IMG/VR virus record: IMGVR_UViG_2534681662_000015
Direction: 5' to 3' (one strand)
Origin: a virus
Taxonomy: Duplodnaviria; Heunggongvirae; Uroviricota; Caudoviricetes
DNA length: 25,154 bases
Shown: positions 13,486-15,414 of the stretch, in pieces
Layout of the letters: each line of letters opens with the position of its first letter
How positions within the stretch are numbered: the first letter of the stretch is position 1
Notes under the pieces: generated by a model
The model's database searches: none
Seen by the model: the letters and a program-made list of their open reading frames with translations, nothing else
What the model was told of the DNA's origin: nothing
Translations under genes and position numbers: made by a program

Positions 13486-13809
13486 ATGGATGCTGGCGTT
13501 CTCGTTCTAGCAGTTCAACAATCCCCAATCACAAAACAATTCACTGATAACGAACTTTGCACACTCGCCTGGTTATGGCGAGCAGGGAATGTGATGTTAA
13601 TTACCTACCAGAACGTTACTCCTCTTCTTCAGGTTGCGGAGCATCGTGAAGCTGGTCGCTTCACTTCTATCGAGCAAGAATATCCCCAGATACTCAACAG
13701 AGCGCGAGCAATCCTCGTCCGAGAAACGGCACATGTAAAACTTCAGCCGTGGCAGGATGATAAGTGGAGTCGAGTATTGCCGCATTTACCTCAGAATCTG
13801 TTTCAATAA
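13486..13809 (+). CDS. Hypothetical protein (107 aa), unknown function
   Basis: ORF with AGGGA SD between ybcK and the HNH gene; no family recognised; could be a gene fragment. Confidence 0.35.
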   Translation: MDAGVLVLAVQQSPITKQFTDNELCTLAWLWRAGNVMLITYQNVTPLLQVAEHREAGRFTSIEQEYPQILNRARAILVRETAHVKLQPWQDDKWSRVLPHLPQNLFQ

Positions 13810-13827
13810 AGGCGCTAGTTAGTAAGG

Positions 13828-13853
13828 CTTCCGTCATTCTGCGATGACGGAAG
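13828..13853 (+). other. Perfect 10-bp stem-loop (CTTCCGTCAT-tctgcg-ATGACGGAAG)
   Basis: Read directly; 19 bp after the stop of the 107-aa ORF; no T-run. Confidence 0.5.
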
Positions 13854-13983
13854 TGCGGGCTGCGTACGGGAGAGCAATTGCATGAATAATATAAATATTC
13901 CGCTCACTCCATATAGCGATTTCTGATACAAACTTATCTATTGTGGTAAAATTATAGAAACAAACTTATAGCGTACTAACCAT

Positions 13984-14766
13984 ATGGACAATATTAATAA
14001 ACACGGGCTCTCAAGAAGAATACCTGAGACAATAAAACGTCAGATAAGGCAAAGGTGCGGCTTTGGCTGTGTAATTTGTGGATTTGGATTTTATGATTAT
14101 GAGCATTTTAAACCTGACTTCGTTGATGCCAAAGTACATGATCCGAATGGAATGACACTTCTTTGCTCCCAATGCAATCAAAAAAGAGCTCGTGGTAGAC
14201 TTTCAGCACAGACAGTGGAAATAGCTGACAGAAATCCCAAGTGCTTACAGGCTGGTTTTGCAAATGAAATGTTTGATTTTCATAATGAGCCTATAACAGT
14301 AAAATTTGCAGGAGTGACGTTTCATAACTGTCAAAATTTGATTGTAGTCAACGAACAACCCATTCTTTCTGTGAAACCTTCACCCATACCACATGGACCG
14401 ATGCTTTTATCAGGAATTTTCTGTAATTCTATTGGTAAGGAGACTTTACTGATAGATGAAAATGAATGGAAAGCTAAATCAGACAATTGGGATGTGGAGT
14501 GTACCGGCCCGCGTATAACAATACGACGTGGGCCAGGAGAGTTTGCCCTCGTTCTAAAAATGGAACCTCCAACAGGATTGATTGTTGAGCGTCTTGATAT
14601 GTTGTATGAAGGGGTCAGGATGAAAGGAGATAAAGATCTGCTGGAAGTTTCGATTAATGGAGGTCCCTTGCACAGATGGCAATCATGCTCAATGTCAAAT
14701 TGCCATACAGGGCTTGCGATTCAGGGCGGTATTAGAGCTGCTAATGATCCTTTGTATTGCGCCTAA
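13984..14766 (+). CDS. HNH (beta-beta-alpha-Me) nuclease-motif protein with an uncharacterised ~180-aa C-terminal domain; AT-rich cargo gene
   Basis: 260-aa ORF; N-terminal region RCGFGCVICGFGFYDYEHFKPDFVDAKVHDPNGMTLLCSQCNQKRARG contains the CxxxC…EH…N…CxxC arrangement typical of HNH nucleases; the rest is not recognisable; weak SD. Confidence 0.6.
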   Translation: MDNINKHGLSRRIPETIKRQIRQRCGFGCVICGFGFYDYEHFKPDFVDAKVHDPNGMTLLCSQCNQKRARGRLSAQTVEIADRNPKCLQAGFANEMFDFHNEPITVKFAGVTFHNCQNLIVVNEQPILSVKPSPIPHGPMLLSGIFCNSIGKETLLIDENEWKAKSDNWDVECTGPRITIRRGPGEFALVLKMEPPTGLIVERLDMLYEGVRMKGDKDLLEVSINGGPLHRWQSCSMSNCHTGLAIQGGIRAANDPLYCA

Positions 14767-14806
14767 ATCCACTAAATTGATTTTCAACAATCAACTTGCC
14801 ATAATT

Positions 14807-14839
14807 AAGTCACCGGAGTTTGAACTCCTCCGGTGACTT
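14807..14839 (+). other. Strong stem-loop (12-bp perfect stem AAGTCACCGGAG / CTCCGGTGACTT, 9-nt loop) at the boundary between the AT-rich cargo and ybcN
   Basis: Read directly; no flanking T-run on either strand, so it may be a terminator-like structure, an RNA stability element or an insertion scar. Confidence 0.5.
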
Positions 14840-14958
14840 CTGCGCTAAACGGGGACGTTTATGCGCACATACAATCCAACCTCTCTTCTCCATTCACAGA
14901 TGCAGAAATGCACCTGCGATATTTTGCATCCAGCGTTTGATCTCTGCGGAGGTGAAGC

Positions 14959-15414
14959 GTGAACCTCCCACAAGATGGTATCAAATTGCATCGCGGTAAC
15001 TTCACCGCTATCGGTCGGCAGATCCAGCCTTATCTGGAGGACGGCAAATGCTTTCGCATGGTGCTTAAACCGTGGCGCGAGAGACGCAGTCTTTCCCAGA
15101 ATGCACTCAGCCACATGTGGTACAGCGAAATCAGTGAATACCTCATCAGCAAGGGTAAAACGTTCGCCACTCCAGCTTGGGTAAAAGATGCTCTCAAACA
15201 CACATATCTCGGTTATGAAACCAAAGACCTGGTTGATGTCGTAACCGGTGATATCACCACTATCCAGTCGTTACGCCATACCTCCGATCTTGATACCGGA
15301 GAGATGTATGTCTTCCTGTGTAAGGTTGAAGCCTGGGCGATGAATATTGGCTGCCACCTGACTATTCCGCAGAGCTGCGAGTTCCAGCAGCTCCGCGACA
15401 AACAGGAGGCGTAA
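14959..15414 (+). CDS. ybcN: YbcN-like protein (DLP12 nin-region protein, reported DNA base-flipping protein)
   Basis: 151-aa ORF starting at GTG with GGAGGTG SD; recognised as E. coli YbcN (…[61 protein letters not shown]…). Confidence 0.85.

Follow-up and report, generated by a model that had tools for sequence, protein, structure and literature searches.

BstA is a prophage-encoded protein that has been proven to act by abortive infection (Owen et al. 2021, PMC8585504). [quoted passage not shown] HNH proteins associated with the terminases of cos phages are described as small and encoded beside terminase or portal genes (Kala et al. 2014, as cited in PMC12315714).

The window analysed here, a stretch of 25,154 nucleotides, contains an HNH gene within a DLP12/lambda-like prophage of Escherichia coli; all features described below lie on its plus strand. 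The gene (13984-14766, ATG start) encodes a 260-aa protein that consists of an HNH domain and a beta domain and is labelled hypothetical protein in RefSeq (WP_001348590.1). The protein matches phrog_6544, annotated in PHROG as function unknown, at E = 1.8e-141. An earlier note on this sequence had pointed to the rightward 260-aa reading frame, and 305 homologues at E ≤ 1e-3, nearly all of 247-270 aa and aligned over their full length, support it as a genuine gene. The same note had placed the gene in an AT-rich patch. Indeed, the GC content of the ORF is 0.39-0.42 versus 0.50-0.54 in ybcN-rusA, but the AT-richness spans the whole block from emrE to the HNH gene (~11.4-14.8 kb). The Shine-Dalgarno sequence, read from the sequence, is poor, which we counted against a defence role. 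Our reading, to which we assign a probability of approximately one half, is that the protein is a self-contained, prophage-borne, single-protein defence nuclease, a moron that protects the lysogen, and so the prophage, from other phages.

The 260-aa protein was compared with collections of known families and structures. NCBIfam returned no match, and the PADLOC 2.0 models returned only PtuB, at an insignificant level (E = 0.031, 12.2 bits). A sequence search of the PDB with the full-length protein yielded nothing meaningful, with one match at E = 1.9. The full-length family profile had a single PDB match, HIV gp160 (E = 0.033), which we rejected as chance. Searches of the accessible literature by accession and by PHROG identifier found nothing. 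As judged by the database searches, PADLOC 2.0, Pfam, and NCBIfam do not contain the family. The earlier note had weighed full-length homology to a characterised terminase-associated HNH protein or a housekeeping nuclease against its proposal; no such match was present in the Pfam, NCBIfam, or PDB sequence searches, and the genomic context and domain content speak against the terminase-associated type.

The N-terminal domain (aa 1-90; 13984-14253) is a zinc-ribbon HNH, or beta-beta-alpha-Me, nuclease domain. The Cys/His/Asn arrangement noticed earlier reads C25-x3-C29-x2-C32, Y39-E40-H41, D53-P54-N55, and C61-x2-C64-N65, and the HNH identity drawn from it agrees with a beta-hairpin and alpha-helix fold around the metal site. 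E40 and N65 are the putative ligands of the metal and H41 is the putative general base; their codons lie at 14101-14106 (E40-H41) and 14176-14178 (N65). These three residues were invariant across 72 sequences. H52, C29, C32, and C61 were also invariant, and C64 was present in at least 90% of sequences. With Cys pairs C29/C32 and C61/C64 for a putative structural zinc, the protein is assigned to the zinc-ribbon HNH subgroup.

Distant family members have E, H, or D at position 40 and H at position 65, and retain the canonical CxxCH. Profile alignments with ZRANB3, IscB, and an intron maturase pair H41 and position 65 with the DH/HH and CxxCH residues of these proteins. Compared with the PDB, the N-terminal profile gave only weak HNH matches, though the alignments were consistent. 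The canonical structural HNH Asn aligns to position 56, which is Gly in the 260-aa protein and its subfamily and varies among G, K, N, A, and H across the wider family. This Asn has a structural rather than a catalytic function, and active variants without it are known. In the active enzymes T4 endonuclease VII and I-HmuI and in the Cas9 HNH domain, the metal site consists of an acidic residue followed by His, together with a distal Asn. Against Pfam PF01844, the 260-aa protein scored 14.5 bits (E = 0.041; gathering score, 21.4 bits), P0213, a full-length distant family member, scored 25.0 bits, and other members scored 18-20. Gly56 and the sub-threshold Pfam score of the 260-aa protein were counted against the defence reading, as was the lack of a significant match to a PADLOC 2.0 model. 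The HNH fold and the catalytic residues are intact in the 260-aa protein, which is predicted to be an active nuclease.

The C-terminal domain (aa 91-246; 14254-14721) is predicted to be an antiparallel beta meander of ~17 strands with an unrecognised fold. The earlier note could not relate this part of the protein to anything, and we likewise found no Pfam, NCBIfam, or PDB sequence match for it. Its invariant or near-invariant residues are G91, E95, F97, D98, F99, N160, W169, D170, R181, and M206. The beta-domain profile matched 1,603 clusters at 50% identity (811 with E ≤ 1e-10), and the domain starts at approximately residue 88-107, behind the HNH domain. Other effector domains fused to the beta domain, which would have pointed to an exchangeable sensor, were not found among these proteins, and apparent beta-only proteins were N-truncated gene calls. 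Across the matched sequences, the HNH and beta domains are always fused, a fixed two-domain architecture under selection; both are strongly conserved at long range, with 33-60% identity across phyla and with invariant residues. The beta domain presumably serves in recognition or control. A few members have extra C-terminal tails containing TPR, CxxCxxCC, or SEC-C-like motifs.

The gene occupies a slot whose left border, in most variants, is a 107-aa ORF annotated as a P22AR C-terminal domain-containing protein (13486-13809), an antirepressor fragment. The right flank (14861-15414) consists of a 33-aa ylcH-like ORF (14861-14962) and ybcN (14959-15414), followed by ninE, ybcO, and rusA. The proposal that this is a variable cargo slot held in its main part, as we found at least eight alternative contents and an empty form between the same flanks. 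Its inclusion of ylcH among the K-12 cargo failed: the ylcH-like ORF is part of a conserved flank and is present in the window too, and the K-12 cargo is only ybcL and ybcM. In other E. coli, the slot contains BstA (PADLOC, E = 3.6e-121), a HEPN pair (PDC-M28A, E = 1.8e-7, with a partner gene), four kinds of unrecognised small genes (118, 169, 58 + 210, and 133 aa), an alpha/beta hydrolase, ybcL/ybcM, or nothing. The HNH cassette was present in 80 of 5,426 complete genomes, against 104 for BstA and 186 for the HEPN pair. Clearly non-defence cargo, namely ybcL/ybcM and an esterase, was counted against the defence reading.

In E. coli, the identical HNH protein was found in this same slot in 10 of 10 distinct places. 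In 26 E. coli genomes, all that is left of the gene is a 54-nt scar, its 3' end (14717-14770), fused to the ybcN flank. In one scar-only strain, a SIR2-family protein adjoins. Replaced or absent between conserved flanks in the genomes compared, the HNH gene is moron-like accessory cargo of the prophage. These comparisons define the interval between the P22AR fragment and ybcN as a hotspot of DLP12/lambda-like prophages that exchanges BstA, the HEPN pair, the HNH gene, and several unknown small genes. As the slot is shared with defence genes, its unrecognised occupants are ready candidates for further defence genes. In the paper on HepS, the HEPN protein of Salmonella Gifsy-1, we found no statement on the P22AR-ybcN slot.

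The exchanged unit is a cassette of 974 bp (13803-14776) that comprises a non-coding leader and the HNH gene and is swapped as a unit in related prophages. In blastn comparisons with four loci carrying other cargo, homology ended at ~13789-13802 on the left and resumed at 14777 on the right; the right-hand limit was also seen in K-12-type genomes. Two stem-loops had been described as flanking the gene, and both are perfect. The upstream one (13828-13853; arms 13828-13837 and 13844-13853) has 10 bp and a 6-nt loop, with ΔG of −17.6 kcal/mol and a z-score of −3.4, and lies shortly past the stop of the P22AR-fragment ORF. The downstream one (14807-14839; arms 14807-14818 and 14828-14839) has 12 bp and a 9-nt loop, with ΔG of −20 and a z-score of −5.7, and sits 5' of the ylcH-like ORF and ybcN. 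Based on the cassette limits, however, only the upstream stem-loop is cargo-specific; the downstream one belongs to the conserved ybcN-proximal flank, K-12 included. No T-run follows either stem-loop, and the terminator scan called neither. Neither stem-loop belongs to a known RNA family, given that Rfam had no match in the region or anywhere else in the window. The upstream stem-loop may be a transcript-end or insulating hairpin.

The 174-nt leader contains a sigma-70 promoter-like site (13923-13952) consisting of CTGATA, an 18-nt spacer, and TAAAAT, with 9 of 12 consensus matches and TG present. The extended −10, TGgTAAAAT, lies at 13944-13952, and the site precedes the ATG by 32 nt. The upstream regions of seven enterobacterial homologues had a single element in common, a −10-like TAnAAT at a comparable distance. 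The earlier claim that the gene has its own regulatory context is weaker than it was put: this promoter-like extended −10 element is present, but the gene has no canonical terminator and the downstream hairpin lies in a flank common to all cargo types. As a match to the consensus, the site is a putative promoter from which the gene may be expressed in the lysogen.

The family spans many bacterial phyla and one archaeal MAG. Its spread is sporadic: two motif patterns together identified it in 206 of 185,579 species genomes. The description of the gene as stand-alone agrees with the absence of a conserved neighbour among 80 diverse loci. Specifically, when all ORFs of ≥70 aa lying up to 5 kb away were clustered, no family occurred in more than six loci or at a fixed position; a search for a small conserved partner ORF (25-110 aa) found none; and no Pfam family occurred more than twice among 144 immediate neighbours. 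Approximately 10 of the 144, from diverse taxa, are defence-type by their model matches (E ≤ 1e-10), which were to HEC-05, NsnA, type IV and type II REases, AbiO, Nhi, PD-T4-2, MADS, and HerA. The share of all E. coli genes that are located ten genes or fewer from a known defence gene is only 2% (PMC13092281). Outside the enterobacteria, many neighbours were ordinary housekeeping genes, which we counted against the defence reading.

Copies outside phage operons included a V. cholerae single-gene integron cassette with VCR-like repeats on both sides, a chromosomal site in Comamonas, a cyanobacterial plasmid, and many MAG chromosomes, where the gene lies beside housekeeping genes. A divergent HTH gene adjoins the Comamonas copy. 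The copy in an Alcaligenes prophage is located in a tail/lysis accessory region. A second HNH gene beside it was rejected as a paralogue, as its HNH domain is C-terminal and BLASTP gave E = 0.076.

The position of the gene in lambdoid prophages bears on an alternative role. In five lambdoid prophage types, the family gene lies at the start of the nin region, co-directional with the pR early operon in all five contexts and among the recombination nucleases NinG, RusA, and YbcO; therefore, it could be a plain early lytic gene. Such an accessory nuclease would be made from the early-right (pR, nin) transcript once the phage is induced or infects, and would act on DNA to the advantage of the phage itself, for instance in recombination or in processing replication intermediates (like NinG/Rap, RusA, or P1 Ref), in degrading host or competitor DNA, or in counter-defence. 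The lack of a canonical terminator that would isolate the HNH gene was also counted against the defence reading. However, members exist where there is no phage operon, from the integron cassette to the MAG chromosomes, and the copy in a Pseudomonas prophage runs against the surrounding early genes, opposite to the early-left operon. Moreover, in E. coli the gene can be missing or replaced by the BstA and HEPN defence genes, and a promoter-like element and a leader of its own precede it. On balance, we consider a lytic-cycle nuclease unlikely.

The earlier note had also offered a homing-type nuclease. On this reading, a free-standing selfish HNH gene cuts alleles that lack it, using the beta domain as a sequence-specific DNA-binding module, and benefits neither host nor prophage. 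In its favour, the HNH fold is typical of homing endonucleases, homing enzymes often recognise DNA through beta sheets, the family is sporadically distributed across phyla, and the gene is a single one with tight cassette borders. This option nevertheless received little support and appears quite improbable. The identical E. coli protein is confined to one slot, where the alternative alleles have no intact target site but unrelated cargo of comparable size, so that the pattern is not one of gene-present and empty-target alleles. The 54-nt scar reflects loss and not precise gain, and for its mobility the copy in V. cholerae relies on the recombination sites of the integron. Further, the NUMOD, IENR, AP2, and HTH DNA-binding modules were not found in Pfam searches, and homing genes usually decay, whereas both domains here are strongly conserved. 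Very improbable is a role with no direct anti-phage action, either as a toxin or addiction-type module or as a regulator that binds DNA through a catalytically inactive, HNH-like protein: the replacement of the HNH Asn by Gly56 and of the last His by Asn65 in the subfamily, the Pfam HNH score below threshold, the HTH gene beside the Comamonas copy, and the many toxin-antitoxin genes that integron arrays and prophages also carry (10.1101/2024.07.02.601686) point that way, but E40, H41, and N65 are invariant in the subfamily and match the metal site of known active His-Me enzymes, distant members retain CxxCH, and no conserved antitoxin-like partner, large or small, occurs in the loci.

As regards the defence reading, the gene is a good candidate because it has no partner gene and sits in a swappable slot that holds known anti-phage genes elsewhere. 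We also counted in favour of this reading the fixed two-domain architecture, the defence-type neighbours in other taxa, the promoter-like extended −10 with a GC content below that of the nin genes, and the moron-like settings of the family in the Pseudomonas and Alcaligenes prophages, at the nin start of the five lambdoid prophage types, and in the V. cholerae integron. The suggestion of a single-gene phage-exclusion or abortive-infection function thus gains from the stand-alone gene and from a variable slot that holds BstA and a HEPN candidate in other strains, and loses in that the regulatory context is weaker than had been stated. In the mechanism we propose, the zinc-ribbon HNH domain would cut DNA with a metal ion, E40 and N65 holding the metal and H41 acting as the general base, and the C-terminal beta meander would supply specificity or control. 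The beta domain might read some property of foreign DNA, in the manner of type IV or solitary restriction enzymes. Alternatively, it might hold the nuclease inactive until a phage product or DNA structure appears, in which case the protein would be an abortive-infection effector built like Cap5 or Shedu. Overall, defence is the most likely role of the protein, at approximately even odds.

More tentatively, and with somewhat less than an even chance, the HNH and beta-meander proteins may constitute an unrecognised, widespread family of one-protein immune nucleases (~1,600 clusters at 50% identity, in bacterial phyla and at least one archaeal MAG). In such a family, the C-terminal domain would be a new sensor or reader fold for a phage-specific DNA feature or phage component, and the genes would be exchanged among hotspots in prophages, defence islands, and integron cassettes. 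Should defence prove to be its role, this compact system (260 aa, <1 kb with its promoter, and no partner) would join the single-protein immune nucleases. Its regulatory or recognition domain would be without structural precedent, which raises the question of how an HNH nuclease acting alone distinguishes self from non-self. With a member in a V. cholerae integron cassette, the family connects integron arrays with prophage hotspots as stores of the same genes.

We compared the protein with described systems, several of which do not accommodate it. The match to the PtuB/retron-associated TIGR02646 HNH of Septu was insignificant (E = 0.031, 12.2 bits). Moreover, PtuB works with the PtuA ATPase, and no ATPase gene was adjacent in the window or conserved in the 80 loci. 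Terminase-associated HNH proteins share with the present protein a phage-encoded HNH domain. However, the present protein has 260 aa and an extra domain, and, in agreement with the earlier remark that the gene is not next to terminase, nohD/terminase lies ~6.7 kb downstream, past Q, a porin gene, and the lysis cassette. This class was therefore rejected on context and domain content. Cap5, a CBASS effector, combines an N-terminal HNH domain with a C-terminal SAVED sensor; the present protein was not assigned to this class, having neither a SAVED domain nor a linked CD-NTase.

An HNH domain plus a second domain, with no methyltransferase, is a layout that fits a type IV restriction enzyme. In EcoKMcrA, ScoMcrA, TagI, and VcaM4I, however, the HNH domain is C-terminal, whereas here it is N-terminal. 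The readers of these type IV enzymes have known folds (an N-terminal 5mC reader, SRA, or a sulphur-binding domain), whereas the beta domain has no recognisable relative and, in the reader-fold comparison, matched no known reader fold. As with Sirona and Nemetona, the present family has a member in a V. cholerae integron cassette. Among the best 120 relatives (≥53% identity) of the Vibrio family member, there was no V. cholerae N16961 protein; therefore, Sirona and Nemetona are at least not close relatives. BstA resembles the HNH protein in being encoded by a single gene in Gram-negative prophages with no partner protein, and 104 E. coli genomes have a BstA homologue in the identical slot, bordered by the P22AR fragment and ybcN. 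The two are linked by position only: they have no sequence relationship (the PADLOC BstA model gave no match), and BstA is without an HNH domain. Set beside these systems, the HNH and beta-meander family is a candidate new one-protein phage-defence system.

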